Positions 1-50,848 of a stretch of 50,848 nt of DNA are shown here, piece after piece. Location of the stretch: NCBI GenBank assembly GCA_038245905.1, contig JBBRRY010000029.1, forward strand, positions 1 through 50,848, written 5' to 3'. This DNA comes from Thermoanaerobaculia bacterium. Lineage in GTDB: Bacteria > Acidobacteriota > Thermoanaerobaculia > UBA5066. How positions within the stretch are numbered: the stretch's first letter is position 1; each line of letters opens with the position of its first letter. The position numbers and the translations under genes were made by a program. The notes beneath the pieces were generated by a model, which saw only the letters and a list, made by a program, of their open reading frames with translations, had not been told where the DNA came from and did no database searches.

Positions 1-165
1 GGCCCCGGATTCGCCCGAAAGCGGCGGATCAAGACGAAAAGTAGGAGTCGAAACCGCCGCCCTCGGCAATCTCTTCCCTCTAAGAATCTCTTCTCTCGCC
101 TTCGTCTCCAGAAAACAGGCCCTTCTTCAACAGCCTGCTAGCGGGCGCTTGCGGCGGACAGGACA

Positions 166-46857: not shown

Positions 46858-48177
46858 TTGACACTTCCCGTTCTCGTCGTTGCGGTCGCCGCCGCGCTTG
46901 CAGCTTCACCGTCGGCACCGGCCCAGGCCAAGCCCTCGAGCCCCCACGTCCCGTTCATCGAGGGCAAGCCCTTCGCCGAGGTCCTCCGCCGCGCGAAGGC
47001 CGAGAGCAAGCCCATCATGCTCGACGTCGTGGCTTCGTGGTGCGGTCCGTGCAAGATCATGGACATGACGACGTTTTCCGACGCCAGCGTCGTCGACTGG
47101 GTTAGGAAGACCGTCATCCCCGCGCGCGTCGACGCGGAAAAGGGCGAAGGACGGCGCATCTCTGCGCGCTATCAGGCCTACTCGTTTCCGACGGTGGTCT
47201 TCCTCGACGGCGACGGAAACGAGATCGACCGTCTCGTGGGTGGATATGGGGCCGTCGAGTTTCAGCGCGGCTCCGAAGCCCTTCTCGCCGGACGGACCCA
47301 GCTCCTCACGAAGCTCGCGAGGCTGAAGGCGGCCTGGAACGCCGACGAAGCGCTCGCGGTTGCGAACGCCCTCGCCGCGCGGCGCGACCTCTCGCGCCTC
47401 CGCCCGATTGCGCTCCGTATCGTCGGCGACGAAGGCGATCTCGGCCGCCCCGAGATCTTCCAGCTCTTCACGCAGCTCGTTGCAGTCGAGGCGCTCGACA
47501 ACGACAATTCCGCCGAGACCGGCGATCTCATCGCGACCTTCCTCCCCCGTCTCGGGAACGACCCGCGTCGCGGCTTCCTCGCCGTCGCTCTCGTGACCGG
47601 CCTCGGAAAGCGTGGAGACGTCGCGGCGGCGCGCGCCGTGACGGCGGAGACCCTCCTCGCCCTGGGTGAAGCCTCCCCTTACTCCGCCGAAGTTCTCGCG
47701 GCTCTCGGTGCCGCCGAGCGTACGGCCGGCAACGGCCCGGACGCGCTTGCGGCTTTCCGGCGAGCCGCGGCTCTCGCCGAGAAGAACGGCGCCGCCCCGG
47801 GGTCGCGTGTCGAGCGGCAGTTCGACCTCGCCGAGGCACTCGCCGCGAGCGGAAAGCCCGCCGAGGCGAAGAGGGCCTACGCCGCCGGGAGCGCTATCGG
47901 GCCGCTCGACACGCAGCTCGCCGTGCGGGCGGCGCACGTCGCGCTGGTCCTGAAGGAGACGGCCGCCGCCCTCCAGCACGCGCGCCATGCCGTCGAGTTG
48001 TCGAGCGGGGAGGACGCAAGCGCCCAGGGAGCTCTCGCAACCGTCCTCCGCGCCACCGGAGACCGCGCGGGCGCTTCCGCCGCCCTCAAGAAGGCGGCGG
48101 CTCTCGACCCCGCCAACCCCGAGTACCGCGCGGGCTCTCCCGAGGCGCCGAAGAAGAGAGCCTCCAAGGCCTCCTGA
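46858..48177 (+). CDS. Exported thioredoxin-family protein with TPR-like C-terminus
   Basis: Signal peptide; WCGPC active site; SFPTVVFLD; helical repeats; TTG start behind TAAGGAG. Confidence 0.85.
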   Translation: MTLPVLVVAVAAALAASPSAPAQAKPSSPHVPFIEGKPFAEVLRRAKAESKPIMLDVVASWCGPCKIMDMTTFSDASVVDWVRKTVIPARVDAEKGEGRRISARYQAYSFPTVVFLDGDGNEIDRLVGGYGAVEFQRGSEALLAGRTQLLTKLARLKAAWNADEALAVANALAARRDLSRLRPIALRIVGDEGDLGRPEIFQLFTQLVAVEALDNDNSAETGDLIATFLPRLGNDPRRGFLAVALVTGLGKRGDVAAARAVTAETLLALGEASPYSAEVLAALGAAERTAGNGPDALAAFRRAAALAEKNGAAPGSRVERQFDLAEALAASGKPAEAKRAYAAGSAIGPLDTQLAVRAAHVALVLKETAAALQHARHAVELSSGEDASAQGALATVLRATGDRAGASAALKKAAALDPANPEYRAGSPEAPKKRASKAS

Positions 48178-48191
48178 GAAGAGGACGCAAC

Positions 48192-49079
48192 GTGGCGCGC
48201 CGATGGTCGCCCGCGGGCATCCTTCTTTCTCCGGTCGGACTCGCTCCCGCAACCGCCTCCGTCGAGGCCTTCCGGTCCACCGCGCGAGAGGCGGTCGGTC
48301 CGGCCGGATCTGTCGAAGTCTTCACCCACGACGGGGACCCTCGGGAACCGGCGCGCCTCTCGTCCCTCTTCGCGACGCCGGGCCGGCCGGAGACGCGCGG
48401 CACGGTCCTCTTCCTGCATGGCAAGGGCGGCTGCGGCGCCGAATGGACTCCCGACACGGTGCGCGCCCTCGGCCTCGGCTTCAACGTCCTCGTGCCCGAG
48501 TTGCGCGGGCATCCGCCCTCGACAGGCGAGCGCATCACGTACGGCATCTTCGAGACGGTGGACCTGGTGCTCCTCCTCGACTTCGCCGCCACCCGGTTCG
48601 GCGTGAACCGCGCGCGCCTCGGCATCGACGGCTGTTCGATGGGCGCCCTCCTCGCACTTCACCTCGCCGCCGCCGCCCCGCCCGCCGCGCTGTGGCTGCA
48701 GGCGCCGTTCGGCGACATGAAGGAAATGGCCGCGCACTATCTGCATCGCGCCACGGGGCTGCCCGCCGTTCTCTTTTCGCTCCCCGTGCGCTTCCTCATG
48801 CAGCGCATCGCACGCACCGAGGGTCTCGACCTCTCCCAAGCGGACCCGGTGCGCGCGGCCCGGCGCGTGACGTGCCCAACGGTCGTCGTGCACGGCGAGG
48901 ACGACGGCCTCGTGCCGATCCGCTTCGCGCCACGCGTTTACAAGGCGCTCGCCGGAGAGAAGACCTTCTGGCGCGTGCCACGCTGCGGCCACTGCCACCA
49001 CGCGGACGAGCCGCAGGTCCGGGAGCGGGCGGAATACGAAAGGCGCTGGACGGAGTTCTTCCGGCCGCTCCTCGCGTGA
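48192..49079 (+). CDS. Alpha/beta hydrolase
   Basis: FLHG, ELRGH, GCSMG nucleophile, VHGEDD, CGH. Confidence 0.85.
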   Translation: MARRWSPAGILLSPVGLAPATASVEAFRSTAREAVGPAGSVEVFTHDGDPREPARLSSLFATPGRPETRGTVLFLHGKGGCGAEWTPDTVRALGLGFNVLVPELRGHPPSTGERITYGIFETVDLVLLLDFAATRFGVNRARLGIDGCSMGALLALHLAAAAPPAALWLQAPFGDMKEMAAHYLHRATGLPAVLFSLPVRFLMQRIARTEGLDLSQADPVRAARRVTCPTVVVHGEDDGLVPIRFAPRVYKALAGEKTFWRVPRCGHCHHADEPQVRERAEYERRWTEFFRPLLA

Positions 49080-49082
49080 GCG

Positions 49083-49598
49083 TCAGTCCCTCGCGCGTCC
49101 AGGCCCAAGTTGTGAGAAGCCGGCTGTGAAGGCGCCGATTCCCGCCGCCAGCCGCACGAGAAGCGTCAGGGACGAGAGCCCGTGGAGCCTGCCCCACTGC
49201 TGCCTCAAGGGATCCGTCTTCAAGACGAGATCCATGGCGCCCATCCGCTCCCGGAGCGCCATCATCTCGGGCGTGATGACGTAGAGCGACACGATCGCGG
49301 CGACGGCCGCGACGGCAAGGAGCCGCAGGGCCAGGCCTCGCGCGCGAGAAGACCAGGGCTCCGTGCGGTTCCAGAAAACGAGGCCAAGCACGAGAAGGAC
49401 GGCCGCCCCGAGCGACACGGCGTCGAGGCCGTCGAGGAGCGCCCGGTTCACGGCTCCCGCGGCGTGACGGCTCGGGGCGGTCAGGAGGACGGTGCGGGCT
49501 CCGAACCCCCCGAAGAAGGCGAGCATTCCGCACCACAGGGCCGTCACGAACAGCCACGTGCCGGCGAGAAGCGTCCTGCTTCGTTCCATGTGTTCCAT
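49083..49598 (-). CDS. DUF4149-like 4-TM membrane protein
   Basis: LWCGM..F, R..AG.V, YVITPEM, WGRLHGLSS; start 49598 or 49589. Confidence 0.7.
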   Translation of the reverse strand: MEHMERSRTLLAGTWLFVTALWCGMLAFFGGFGARTVLLTAPSRHAAGAVNRALLDGLDAVSLGAAVLLVLGLVFWNRTEPWSSRARGLALRLLAVAAVAAIVSLYVITPEMMALRERMGAMDLVLKTDPLRQQWGRLHGLSSLTLLVRLAAGIGAFTAGFSQLGPGRARD

Positions 49599-49606
49599 CC
49601 GCGCGC

Positions 49607-50458
49607 TCAGGTCTCCGCGACCCACTCGGGTGTCACGAGGCTGGGGAGGAGGCCGGAGGCGTGCCCGCGCGAGAGAAGCAGGCGCACGGCCTCGCGTCCG
49701 CGTTCACCATACGAGCGAGTCCAGTCGTTCACGTACATCGCCACGAAGCGGTCCGCCTTCTCGCGCGGGAGCCCGCGCGCGAAGCGCATCGCATCCGTGA
49801 GGGCGGCTTCGCGGTGAAGGAGGGCGTACTCGATGGAACGCCCGAGCGCACGAGAGACGCGCGCGATGAGCTCCGGCCCGAGATCCTTTCGGACGGCATT
49901 GCCTCCGAGGGGCAGCGGTAGGGAGGTCTCTTCCTTCCAGACGACGCCGAGATCCGCCACGAGCCGGAACCCCTCGTCTCTCCAGGTGAGCTGGCCCTCG
50001 TGGATGACGACGCCGGCGTCCACGTCGCCCCGCGCCACGGCCTCGCCCACCCTGTCGAACGGCGTCACCACGGGTACTGACAAGGCGGAGTAGATCCTGA
50101 GCGCCAGGGCCGCGGTCGTGAGAGCGCCCGGAATCGCGACGCGAAGACCCGCGAGGTCGGCGAGAGTCCGCGGCGAGCCCGGCTCCTCGCGCGCGACGAC
50201 ACATGGCCCGTAGCCGTCGCCAAAGGATGCCCCGTGCGGCAGCAGCACGTATCGGTCCGCGAGAAACGCGTATGCGTGAAAGGACACGGCCGTGATCGCG
50301 AGCTCGCCCGAAAGCGCCCGCCGGTTCAGGGTCTCGATGTCGGCAAGCTCGTGACGATACGAAACGCCCTCGGTGTCGACCGCGTTCTCGCGCAGTCCAT
50401 AGAACATGAAGGCATCGTCGGAGTCGGGCGAGTGTGCGAGGACGAGTGTCTGGCTCAT
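49607..50458 (-). CDS. mqnD: 1,4-dihydroxy-6-naphthoate synthase (futalosine menaquinone pathway)
   Basis: HSPDSDDAFMF, DIETLN, GASFGDGYGP, PGALTTA, IHEGQLT, LPLPLG, MYVN; GGAG RBS. Confidence 0.9.
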   Translation of the reverse strand: MSQTLVLAHSPDSDDAFMFYGLRENAVDTEGVSYRHELADIETLNRRALSGELAITAVSFHAYAFLADRYVLLPHGASFGDGYGPCVVAREEPGSPRTLADLAGLRVAIPGALTTAALALRIYSALSVPVVTPFDRVGEAVARGDVDAGVVIHEGQLTWRDEGFRLVADLGVVWKEETSLPLPLGGNAVRKDLGPELIARVSRALGRSIEYALLHREAALTDAMRFARGLPREKADRFVAMYVNDWTRSYGERGREAVRLLLSRGHASGLLPSLVTPEWVAET

Positions 50459-50576
50459 GCGATGTCTCCGATTTTTCTCCGCGCGCGATCGTAGCCCGGA
50501 TGCGAAGTCGACATGGGTCTCGTGGAACCGGGTCCGAGGCGGCTGAAAAAAACTTCGCACGTCAAGAAAAAAATTC

Positions 50577-50604
50577 TTGATTCGCGCTCGAAACTCTCTA
50601 CAAT
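50577..50604 (+). promoter_or_regulatory. Sigma70-type promoter for the MPAKK gene leader
   Basis: TTGATT-16 nt-TACAAT, preceded by A-tracts; overlapped by the inverted repeat TCAAGAA-N5-TTCTTGA (50562-50580). Confidence 0.55.
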
Positions 50605-50614
50605 TCTCTTCAGC

Positions 50615-50660
50615 AAGAAAAAAGGACGGCGACGTGATCTTGAGTCACTTCACCGTCCTT
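50615..50660 (-). terminator. Intrinsic terminator on the minus strand
   Basis: Minus strand reads AAGGACGGTGAAGTGA-CTCAAGA-TCACGTCGCCGTCC followed by TTTTTTCTT. Confidence 0.7.
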
Positions 50661-50764
50661 ACGGAAAACCCCGAGCTCTTTTGAAATCGACCGACAACCA
50701 AATTTTTAGAGTTCTTTCGGCAGTCGGCAGATCCAGAAAACGCGAGGTTCCCGTCCTTCGAGGG
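50616..50764 (-). ncRNA. Candidate structured sRNA or attenuator leader (~150 nt), family not recognised
   Basis: Lies between a strong promoter and a terminator; by hand it folds into a ~94-nt irregular hairpin with multiple G-U pairs that form only on the minus strand; no plausible ORF. Ends are inferred. Confidence 0.55.
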
Positions 50765-50770
50765 GCGGCC

Positions 50771-50800
50771 AACCTAGCACGCGGCTTTCGGGACTGTCAA
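50771..50800 (-). promoter_or_regulatory. Sigma70-type promoter on the minus strand
   Basis: Perfect TTGACA (50800-50795), 18-nt spacer ending in TGC, then TAGGTT (extended -10). Confidence 0.65.
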
Positions 50801-50831
50801 TCAAATCTGCCAAGAGGAGGTGACAGTCCAC

Positions 50832-50848
50832 ATGCCAGCGAAGAAGAA
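50832..50848 (+). CDS. 5' end of a gene truncated by the window (MPAKK...), possibly a small basic protein
   Basis: Strong AGAGGAGGTGA Shine-Dalgarno before ATG CCA GCG AAG AAG; only five full codons visible. Confidence 0.6.

Follow-up and report, generated by a model that had tools for sequence, protein, structure and literature searches.

At the very end of the window, by which we mean the whole 50,848-nt stretch of DNA analysed here (one complete contig), begins a tiny lysine-rich gene whose long leader is predicted to adopt either of two folds beside the ribosome site, and which is faced on the opposite strand by a conserved promoter-like site. We see about an even chance that this is a self-contained small gene with a two-fold leader and a cis-antisense RNA that acts on that leader. 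Comparison of sequences establishes the ORF, both candidate folds, both promoter-like sites, both terminator-like sites and the synteny of the locus; the direction in which control would run and the role of the peptide are what we infer.

A conserved lysine-rich small ORF

The reading frame that starts with MPAKK runs off the end of the window and resumes in contig C35, which begins with the last 73 bases of the window. Translation of this adjacent sequence gave 20 codons (MPAKKKAAKKSTKKAKKGKK), followed by an intrinsic terminator, and the small, possibly Lys-rich protein anticipated in the preliminary description thereby took concrete form: 11 of its 20 residues are Lys. We assembled a comparative set of 63 loci from three families (f1, f2 and f3) of one order of Thermoanaerobaculia, and every one of them has a tiny Lys-rich ORF (18–28 aa) with a terminator behind it, a divergent mqnD upstream and a promoter-like site on the minus strand (Table 1). 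The 25 distinct peptides from these loci are built from K (52%), A, T, M, G, P, S and V only, so that their basic residues are Lys throughout, with zero Arg, in a genome of about 70% G+C. The ORF varies in length by whole codons, third codon positions account for most of its variable sites, 8 of 10 within the genus and 65 of 121 when all sets are taken together, and its start codon and extended Shine-Dalgarno sequence are preserved in all 63 loci. The terminator lies 10–59 nt 3′ of the stop codon, across a region that differs between genera, and the complete transcript would measure only about 355 nt. The gene is below the length that gene callers reach.

Across 289 nt, the locus retains 75–97% identity in 21 of the 24 other genomes of the genus. 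Covariance models of the leader core (R1 and R2) recovered it across the three families, with matches in 34 of the 36 other genomes of the same order at about one copy each, counts that overstate the independent support because the sequences are related, and with none in 114 genomes drawn from the class's other families. A scan of genome contigs with 18-mers returned 105 stretches, of which 26 were homologues, apparently all within the same genus, and the remainder chance matches. Upstream lies the ORF that we take, following the earlier reader's assignment, to be mqnD; the synteny check proposed with that assignment gave a match to its first 60 aa, upstream and on the opposite strand, at each of the 63 loci. 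Between the mqnD start and the leader core there are 129–325 nt over the 63 loci, and only 129 nt in family f3.

The element matches no described RNA or protein family. Rfam release 15 gave no match at E up to 1, either to window positions 48000–50848 or to five loci from other genera. Peptides of 20, 24 and 28 aa found no Pfam-A or NCBIfam family at E up to 10, a test weakened by low-complexity filters, and no PDB chain at E up to 10, likewise a weak test for a low-complexity query of 20 aa; three peptide variants had no match among about 15 billion predicted proteins. The titles and abstracts returned by literature searches contained nothing on this element, and one of the searches returned no paper that named Thermoanaerobaculia. 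Outside the order, the pattern GGAGG...ATGGCNACNAARAAR occurred at 12 loci, nine of them N-termini of 62–166-aa proteins and three of them small K-rich ORFs of 23 (L203), 42 and 45 aa. Because the peptide matches nothing, its role is a guess, and ours is that of an abundant nucleic-acid-binding polycation located on the ribosome or nucleoid.

Table 1. Features of the locus and RNA-library contigs that cover it (window coordinates unless a locus is named)
Feature	Position	Strand	Remarks
mqnD	49607–50458	−	divergent neighbour
A-tracts, UP-element-like, upstream of −35, together with the inverted repeat below	50546–50581	+	invariant in genus; putative function
Inverted repeat TCAAGAA-N5-TTCTTGA overlapping −35	50563–50581	+	invariant in genus
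Plus-strand promoter TTGATT-16-TACAAT	50577–50604 (−35 50577–50582, −10 50599–50604)	+	predicted start 50611
Predicted cis-antisense RNA, ~154 nt	50611–50764	−	predicted from promoter and terminator
A-run and hairpin (AAGGACGG...CCGTCCTT)	50615–50660	both	5′-proximal stem-loop in the plus RNA
Linker	50661–50718	+	least conserved leader part; holds invariant TCTTTTG (50677–50683); alignment and alifold
Rod-like leader core	50719–50811	+	covariation in 58 distinct sequences; models R1, R2
P1, GGCAG with CTGCC	50719–50723 with 50807–50811	+	100% paired
P2, GGCAG with CTGTC	50726–50730 with 50794–50798	+	100% paired
P3 and P4	inside P1/P2	+	
P5 hairpin, CCGTCC with GGGCGG	50751–50768 (50751–50756 with 50763–50768)	+	one U.G pair
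Promoter-like site TTGACA, 18 nt, TGC-TAGGTT	50771–50800 (50800–50795 and 50779–50771)	−	predicted start near 50764
Alternative hairpin GGACTGTCA/TGACAGTCC	50791–50829 (50791–50799 with 50821–50829)	+	Shine-Dalgarno in loop, spacer from Shine-Dalgarno to AUG in stem
Shine-Dalgarno sequence GGAGGTGA	50816–50823 (GGAGG 50816–50820)	+	invariant in 58 distinct sequences
20-codon ORF MPAKKKAAKKSTKKAKKGKK	50832–50848 (ATG at 50832), continuing in contig C35 (L002:57–119)	+	ORF in 63/63 loci
Terminator GGGGGCTGAATCAGCCCCC-TTATTTTTTT behind the ORF	about L002:165–192	+	terminator-like site in 63/63 loci
X7 record 23	L004:1578–1835		covers leader/ORF
X5 record 19	L004:1488–1817		bridges plus start
X3 records 10 and 12	L004:1551–1801		leader/ORF
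X1 records 3–6			leader/ORF coverage or bridging

The plus-strand promoter and the predicted leader folds

The plus-strand promoter lies where the preliminary description had placed it, and was the sole site in a promoter scan of a 97%-identical locus, L004 (1 site found against 0.2 expected from shuffles; the scan matches consensus and covers sigma-70-type promoters only). Equivalent promoters occur in 60 of the 63 loci; among the other three, the best-scoring site is non-equivalent in two (L174 and L193) and one had no site found. From the predicted start to the ATG the leader measures 221 nt, in agreement with the roughly 220 nt first proposed. The palindrome said to overlap the −35 is there as well, recurs in other families as CAAGA...TCTTG and is possibly an operator. 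In families f2 and f3, the 5′ hairpin of the leader stands right at the predicted plus start.

That the leader is structured, as suggested from the single sequence, is supported by covariation for a rod-like fold (P1–P5) on the plus strand. Among 58 distinct sequences, 85.9% of cells are paired and 14 pairs are altered on both sides, values that none of 500 shuffles reached, in an alignment (A3) that was fitted to the model and hence favours the modelled pairs. P1 and P2 together contain 37 plus-only G.U pairs, zero minus-only wobble and zero mismatches, whereas P4 is poorly supported (66.6% paired, 58 minus-only wobble positions). P5 is the G-U-containing hairpin that had been noticed earlier. 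The core of the leader is more conserved than the ORF, and conserved letters occupy its internal loops.

The second fold is the hairpin GGACTGTCA/TGACAGTCC, whose arms are, as had been pointed out, exact reverse complements that bracket GGAGG just ahead of the ATG. It excludes both P1 and P2. In family f1 this stem has 9 bp in 17 of 48 loci and at least 6 bp in 41 of 48; its outer three pairs covary (GC/CG/UA and UA/AU), with 24 cells altered on both sides compared with 11.4 in shuffles. The mean energy gap between the rod and the Shine-Dalgarno stem is 0.8 kcal/mol in the genus and 2.1 kcal/mol in the rest of f1; for the window's family the two folds, which are mutually exclusive, are thus predicted to be near equal in energy. 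In f2 and f3, by contrast, this stem is only 4–6 bp long and the rod is favoured by about 10 kcal/mol, so the switch may be confined to f1. A further pairing, GGCAGAT (50726–50732) with ATCTGCC (50805–50811), had been put forward as a pseudoknot or an exclusive fold. The letters are present, but the pseudoknot pairing is unsupported: its second pair is unpaired in 25 of the 58 distinct sequences and the pairing showed no excess over the shuffle control (40/500 and 77/500), and a nested pairing suits the data better. The linker can in turn pair with the 5′ strands of P1 and P2 (UCGAC with GUCGG in the minimum-energy fold).

A convergent promoter-like site and a predicted antisense RNA

The promoter-like site reported on the opposite strand recurs in all 63 loci as TTGACA, 17–18 nt and TGC-TAnnTT, invariant at 6 of 6 positions of the −35, at the TG and at 4 of 6 positions of the −10. 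Part of this invariance has another cause, because the letters sit in conserved RNA structure; the invariant positions that no helix explains are the −35 TT, the extended −10 T and the −10 TT. The scan found the site in L186 (10 of 12 matches, with TG) and missed it in L004 and L188, where the second hexamer matches at 3 of 6 positions only, as the minus −10 does in most loci.

About 150 nt further along the minus strand, the hairpin at the 5′ end of the leader is followed by UUUUUUCUU and resembles an intrinsic terminator. Compensatory changes in the alignment support the hairpin. Of 51 distinct examples, 41 are predicted to fold more stably as minus-strand RNA, and wobble positions are minus-only in 83 instances and plus-only in 46; in four of the 51 (L162, L164, L165 and L182) the script had picked another stem, and leaving these out gives 38 minus-favoured, 7 plus-favoured and 2 equal cases, with wobble at 70 against 40. 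An independent scan called the hairpin a minus-strand terminator in L186 and L188, both of the scanned loci of the other two families. Promoter-like site and terminator together delimit a predicted antisense RNA that folds with z = −4.2 and may read through into mqnD, and the same promoter may serve mqnD too, or instead. Of the antisense-controlled leader first proposed, then, the convergent and conserved promoter-like sites stand, together with a predicted overlap between the two transcripts, while transcription of the minus strand is inferred from sequence.

RNA-library contigs

Contigs from RNA libraries of four studies, from several habitats including soil, span or bridge the leader and the ORF (Table 1). 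These contigs are unstranded, and RNA libraries can hold DNA; because they carry no strand, antisense transcription stays a prediction. One X3 contig begins at L004:1551/1552 (window 50610/50611), which is the predicted +1, directly behind an Illumina adapter. This end lies 7 nt after TACAAT and 11 nt after the minus stem, and since the plus start fits slightly better, it lends no support to the antisense RNA. Some X1 and X5 contigs extend across the plus start, as expected of minus-strand read-through, and X1 record 1 extends from inside mqnD to L004:1524; the bridging contigs could equally be DNA carry-over. Contig cover in four runs is nil on L004:1922–2017, from the terminator to padR, and thin or absent on 1410–1473, gaps that carry no evidence. 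X5 contigs that end at 1908 run into unlike sequence and hence give no clean 3′ end. The four runs come from a list of 22, and the shares given for the other 18 (0.25–0.36) count as no evidence.

Two X3 contig ends at L004:1706, the equivalent of the predicted minus start at 50764, were considered as evidence and rejected as an overlap artefact, because they lie 29 nt beyond 1677, a point at which the assembly graph is split by an adapter junction. The X3 piece 1677–1801 has a depth of about 1000 and adapters at both ends, and is most likely one over-amplified fragment. In every orientation the X3 adapters put read 1 on the plus strand; the kit is unspecified, and the RNA strand is therefore not readable from them.

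Alternative explanations

Two alternatives give the minus-strand signals another meaning. One is that the minus promoter is chiefly that of mqnD, with 50764–50459 as a long mqnD 5′ leader in which the hairpin and U-run act as an attenuator, and that the overlap is one of head-to-head mRNAs, excludon-like, instead of a dedicated small antisense RNA; we regard this as an appreciable possibility, though an unlikely one. The invariable presence of divergent mqnD favours it, as does the spacing: in L186 (f3) the mqnD ribosome site and the plus −35 are, as we read the sequence, only about 25 nt apart, and two loci of the genus are missing about 70 nt of spacer, so that a conserved mqnD promoter of its own would not fit. 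The scan found no other minus promoter in L186 or L188, and among the contigs X1 record 1 starts inside mqnD and reaches L004:1524, while X5 record 19 spans the plus start. Yet a strong hairpin with a U-run between promoter and gene should stop most transcripts, the bridging contigs may derive from DNA, and the scan matches consensus for sigma-70-type sites only. The other alternative confines function to the plus-strand unit. The leader would then regulate in cis, as a riboswitch-like RNA or as an operator bound by a protein, for example by the peptide itself in the manner of ribosomal-protein leaders, the 5′ hairpin would stabilise the mRNA, and the promoter and terminator look-alikes on the minus strand would be by-products of conserved RNA letters. 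It is somewhat unlikely in our view. In its favour, both the rod and the ribosome-site stem covary, the wobble in P1 and P2 is plus-only, conserved letters in internal loops recall an aptamer, the f2/f3 hairpin at the predicted plus start recalls mRNA-stabilising hairpins, the X3 contig end suits the plus start best, and the minus −10 matches consensus at just 3 of 6 positions. Against this, a perfect TTGACA with a fixed 17–18-nt spacing and TG-TAnnTT in 63 of 63 loci is an unlikely by-product, invariant unpaired A residues fall on key promoter positions, and neither the conserved A-run before the hairpin nor the minus bias in its wobble pairs (83 to 46) has an obvious plus-strand use.

Other readings turn on the ORF. 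It could be incidental to a transcript that is mainly a non-coding or dual-function small RNA, as the short transcript and the greater conservation of the leader core might suggest; we think this improbable, given an ORF, start codon and extended Shine-Dalgarno sequence kept in all 63 loci despite whole-codon changes in length, and an excess of third-position changes. Still less probable is a Lys-codon leader peptide of an attenuator that senses charged tRNA-Lys and controls the terminator and a padR-like gene: the Lys content of the codons (52%) and the position of the terminator 10–59 nt after the stop codon in all loci would fit, but inspection of the alignments revealed no conserved alternative pairing against the terminator, the stretch between stop codon and terminator differs from genus to genus, the padR-like gene possesses a palindromic operator region of its own and was located downstream by tblastn in only 50 of 63 loci, no lysine biosynthesis gene follows, and a structured 221-nt leader ahead of the ORF is foreign to classical attenuators. 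The toxins of type I toxin-antitoxin systems are small hydrophobic or membrane-active peptides or other proven toxins, and such systems are patchily distributed and often multi-copy or mobile. The preliminary description likened the architecture here to theirs; the peptide would then be the toxin and the antisense RNA the antitoxin. A small ORF behind a long folded leader, a ribosome-site stem and an antisense RNA predicted to overlap the leader do resemble such systems. We nevertheless abandon this kinship as extremely improbable, for the peptide lacks any hydrophobic or membrane segment, there is about one copy per genome and all 63 loci occupy the same syntenic position, its near-universal presence in the order and its absence outside it among the searched genomes follow the pattern of a core gene and not of a mobile addiction module, and the gene combines a strong promoter with a perfect Shine-Dalgarno sequence.

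Discussion

Our preferred reading, a small gene with a two-fold leader and a cis-antisense RNA, would work as follows. A strong sigma-70-type promoter with A-tracts would drive the 221-nt leader, the extended Shine-Dalgarno sequence, the 20-codon ORF and the intrinsic terminator. In the rod, the outer helices would use the CUGUC and CUGCC just 5′ of the Shine-Dalgarno sequence while the ribosome site stays accessible; in the alternative hairpin, the same CUGUCA would pair with the UGACAG between the Shine-Dalgarno sequence and the AUG. The minus promoter, with its hairpin and U-run some 150 nt on, would yield a cis-antisense RNA complementary to the 5′ hairpin of the leader, the linker and the 5′ strands of P1–P5. 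By pairing, the antisense RNA would strip these 5′ strands off the rod, the freed CUGUCA would close the stem at the ribosome site (GGACUGUCA/UGACAGUCC), and the duplex of leader and antisense RNA would be exposed to RNase III. Interference between the convergent transcripts may play a part too, and read-through of the minus terminator into mqnD would tie both genes together. In a bolder version, which we consider quite unlikely, the 18–28-aa Lys/Ala peptide would be an abundant and hitherto unseen polycation of the ribosome or nucleoid, its synthesis set by a three-way switch between linker, rod and ribosome-site stem, flipped by an antisense RNA that is at once the attenuated 5′ leader of the menaquinone gene mqnD; were it true, a single intergenic region of 300 nt would link the making of respiratory quinone with the supply of a peptide that binds nucleic acid, throughout the order.

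The gene and its leader are kept in nearly every good genome of one soil and sediment order of Acidobacteria, and the leader is a new, well-defined RNA structure with two predicted folds in competition beside the ribosome site. Candidates for cis-antisense control are rare in an uncultured phylum, and this one has a whole promoter conserved at the base level. The ORF ranks with the shortest and most extreme of conserved bacterial ORFs, since half its codons are for lysine and none for arginine in a genome of about 70% G+C. To learn what the peptide binds, be it ribosome, DNA, RNA or polyphosphate, would extend acidobacterial cell biology by one component.

Among known systems, hok/sok and other type I loci likewise combine a small ORF with a long leader whose alternative folds close the ribosome site, and have a short antisense RNA, here predicted, from a promoter that faces that of the mRNA. 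The product here is in contrast a hydrophilic polycation without a membrane segment, encoded by a core gene that an entire order keeps in single copy and in synteny, and no overlapping helper ORF is seen. The predicted arrangement, face-to-face promoters with an RNA antisense to the 5′ part of an mRNA, has parallels in RNA-IN/RNA-OUT of IS10 and CopA/CopT of plasmid R1, the latter with a short ORF, the tap leader peptide, in its leader; here the ORF is followed by a terminator alone and not by a gene for a transposase or for replication, the predicted overlap measures about 150 nt, and the locus is chromosomal and conserved by descent. The leader peptides trpL, hisL and pheL share a short ORF rich in one type of codon and a close intrinsic terminator, but the present ORF has a long structured leader upstream, no antiterminator in sight and no cognate biosynthetic operon. 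As in excludon-type overlapping 5′ UTRs, divergent neighbours, mqnD and the small gene, have leaders that are predicted to overlap, in this case over a short stretch conserved base by base, with a terminator-like hairpin within it. Finally, a conserved structured leader next to the ribosome site is the usual setting for autogenous control, and ribosomal-protein leaders likewise combine it with a strong promoter with A-tracts. The ribosomal proteins bS22, bL37 and bTHX too are tiny and very basic products; the peptide described here differs from them in matching no PDB chain and in using only Lys and no Arg, and any ribosomal role for it is a guess.

A lysine-rich small gene behind a conserved leader

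The window is a complete contig (C29), and its last 73 bases are also the first bases of C35, another contig of the same assembly. This join is legitimate: 18 contiguous loci of related genomes are colinear across it. Read across the join, the MPAKK frame, for which the preliminary description had suggested a small, possibly Lys-rich product, is a complete 20-codon ORF, MPAKKKAAKKSTKKAKKGKK, followed about 45 nt past its stop codon by the hairpin GGGGGCUGAAUCAGCCCCC with a U-run and then by a padR-like gene. All 63 loci analysed share the following features: mqnD lies divergently upstream, an ATG stands 4–12 nt downstream of GGAGGTGA, the ORF is 18–28 aa long with only K (52%), A, T, M, G, P, S and V as residues, and a terminator lies 3′ of it. 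These loci encode 25 distinct peptides that differ in length by whole codons, with AAG used 667 times and AAA 43 times for Lys, and variable sites fall mainly in third codon positions (8/10 in the genus and 65/121 overall, a tally in which two sets are inflated by register shifts). The peptide has no match in Pfam, NCBIfam or PDB sequences, searches that have little power with a query of this kind, and a collection of 15 billion predicted proteins lacks the three variants looked up there; apparently the ORF has never been called as a gene. Our guess is that it encodes an abundant nucleic-acid-binding polycation.

The window’s genome and one more of its genus (end of G004:C9 and G004:C27) have their assemblies broken at the identical place, just within the Lys-codon run, and in each the two contigs share 73 bases (here window 50776-50848 and L002:1-73, the start of C35); the assembler was probably misled by AAG repeats or strain variants. 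Further downstream, a 3′ UTR motif, AAGG(T)ATTTCCGGGA(T/A)(T/A)CGGGGGC (L002:145-170), precedes and enters the terminator stem and is nearly invariant across the window’s own family, f1; it is missing from f2 and f3, two other families of the same order. A conserved palindrome, GTATGTAA-N4-TTATATAC (L002:255-285), stands just before the padR-like start codon, at the same place in other loci and as CTATATCT-N4-TGATATAG in the other families, and is probably that gene’s own operator.

Distribution

Of 24 further genomes in the genus, 21 contain the 289 nt of the element at 75–97% identity, and BLAST gave no real match in 16 genomes from other genera. Covariance models of the leader core reach further: R1 matched 54/62 in f1, 32/81 in f2 and 4/7 in f3, and R2, rebuilt from the 63 sequences, matched 13/15, 18/18 and 3/3, where the f2 and f3 tallies take in the unpublished genomes G025 and G030, from neither of which the analysed loci come. 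R2 matched none of 114 genomes from 14 other families of the class, and the element was not found in three genomes of the genus (82–96% complete) or in one genus of the family. Rfam held no match, and literature listings and abstracts gave no description of the element.

One genome of the genus carries two full copies of the mqnD–leader–ORF (MPAKKKAAKKSTKKGKKGKK)–terminator–padR block (L210, G011:C2:639700-641100, and G011:C2:177854-178140), about 74% alike in the leader; since contamination of this genome is 7%, two co-binned related strains are likelier than duplication. Genome G223, from a different family of the class, has a 23-aa ORF, MATKKKAKKSSKKSSKKSAAKKK, behind GAGGAGG (L203:1512-1583) with unrelated leader and neighbours. 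Loci L199 and L200 yielded two other short K-rich ORFs, of 42 and 45 aa. Tiny Lys-rich genes may have a wider distribution than the RNA motif does.

Competing folds of the leader

Window coordinates of features at the locus
Feature	Position	Strand	Observation
mqnD	49607..50458	−	
Predicted antisense RNA	50764-50611	−	~154 nt
A-run	50615-50623	+	U-run on the minus strand
Conserved hairpin (with a U-run)	50622-50660	−	~110–150 nt downstream of minus promoter-like site
TCTTTTGAAA	50677-50686		
Leader core (covariance model)	50712-50838		
Helix P1	50719-50723 with 50807-50811	+	paired in every sequence
Helix P2	50726-50730 with 50794-50798	+	paired in every sequence
−35 of minus promoter-like site	50800-50795	−	TTGACA

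All elements named in the preliminary description lie where it placed them, and its view of a structured leader able to close the ribosome site holds, with one pairing replaced. The wider alignment, which had been fitted to the covariance model, supports a rod of five helices (P1–P5, P4 weakly) on the plus strand: 85.9% of cells are paired, versus less than 45% with partners slid, 14 pairs are altered on both sides, and the observed values were reached by 0 of 500 shuffles. P1 and P2 together contain 37 G·U pairs that become mismatches when read from the opposite strand; the converse case does not occur. Also real is the 9-bp repeat GGACTGTCA/TGACAGTCC of the preliminary description, whose six inner pairs are nearly invariant and whose outer three covary between genera (GC/CG/UA and UA/AU). 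As this stem shares CUGUCA with P2, the two folds are mutually exclusive; in f1 their energies nearly coincide (mean differences 0.8 and 2.1 kcal/mol), and in f2 and f3, with a repeat stem of only 4–6 bp, the rod is favoured by ~10 kcal/mol. The proposed GGCAGAT/ATCTGCC pairing proved wrong: its second pair fails in 25 of 58 sequences and controls are not exceeded, and nested P1/P2 pairing accounts better for the same letters.

TCTTTTGAAA is invariant in the genus within an otherwise variable leader linker; alifold models offer the AAGAAG Lys codons or the 5′ A-run as possible partners. In f2, another promoter-like site on the plus strand (TTGACT or TTGACA, 17 nt, GAGAAT; L188:257-285) lies ~60 nt upstream of the first, and the small gene may there have tandem promoters.

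A predicted antisense RNA

The minus strand carries TTGACA, 17–18 nt and TGC-TAnnTT in 63/63 loci. Of the 37 core columns with no more than one deviating sequence, 13 fall on this promoter-like site (the complete −35 hexamer, the TG and four of six −10 positions), including A residues used by neither fold. Of the 51 distinct versions of the downstream hairpin, 41 fold more stably on the minus strand, with 83 minus-only versus 46 plus-only wobble positions (38/47, and 70 versus 40, once four mis-picked stems are left out). An independent scan, run on one locus each of f2 (L188) and f3 (L186), called the hairpin a minus-strand terminator in both; it called the minus promoter in L186 (10/12 matches, with TG) but not in L188. 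From site, hairpin and U-run we predict an antisense RNA, which folds well (z = −4.2). The facing promoter proposed earlier is thus present as a promoter-like site at every locus, but was rejected by a scan of L004, a 97%-identical locus, where its −10 matches only 3/6 positions and plus-strand TTGATT-16-TACAAT was the sole site reported. In one locus of another family (L186), as read from its sequence, only ~25 nt separate the mqnD ribosome site from the plus −35; two loci of the genus lack ~70 nt of spacer, and no other minus-strand promoter-like site was seen in the loci scanned; the minus promoter may therefore supply mqnD by read-through.

Part of the stretch is present in 18 RNA runs from 11 studies, and contigs of four runs from four studies, compared with the locus, cover or bridge leader and ORF. 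One contig of run X3 starts directly behind an adapter at 50610/50611, the predicted plus +1, though it may instead mark a minus 3′ end close by. Contigs of X1 and X5 run across the plus start, as either read-through on the minus strand or carried-over DNA would produce. As contigs are unstranded and DNA can be present in RNA libraries, the region is likely to be transcribed, and the antisense transcript is a prediction only. X3 also contains a 125-nt piece (L004:1677-1801, mid-rod to ORF codon 9) at depth ~1000, versus 60 over the leader’s 5′ part. Flanked on each side by Illumina adapters, this piece is either an over-amplified fragment or a stable product of processing.

The earlier interpretation is right in outline. 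The likeness it drew to type I toxin-antitoxin systems stands for the architecture, but extends to nothing beyond it.
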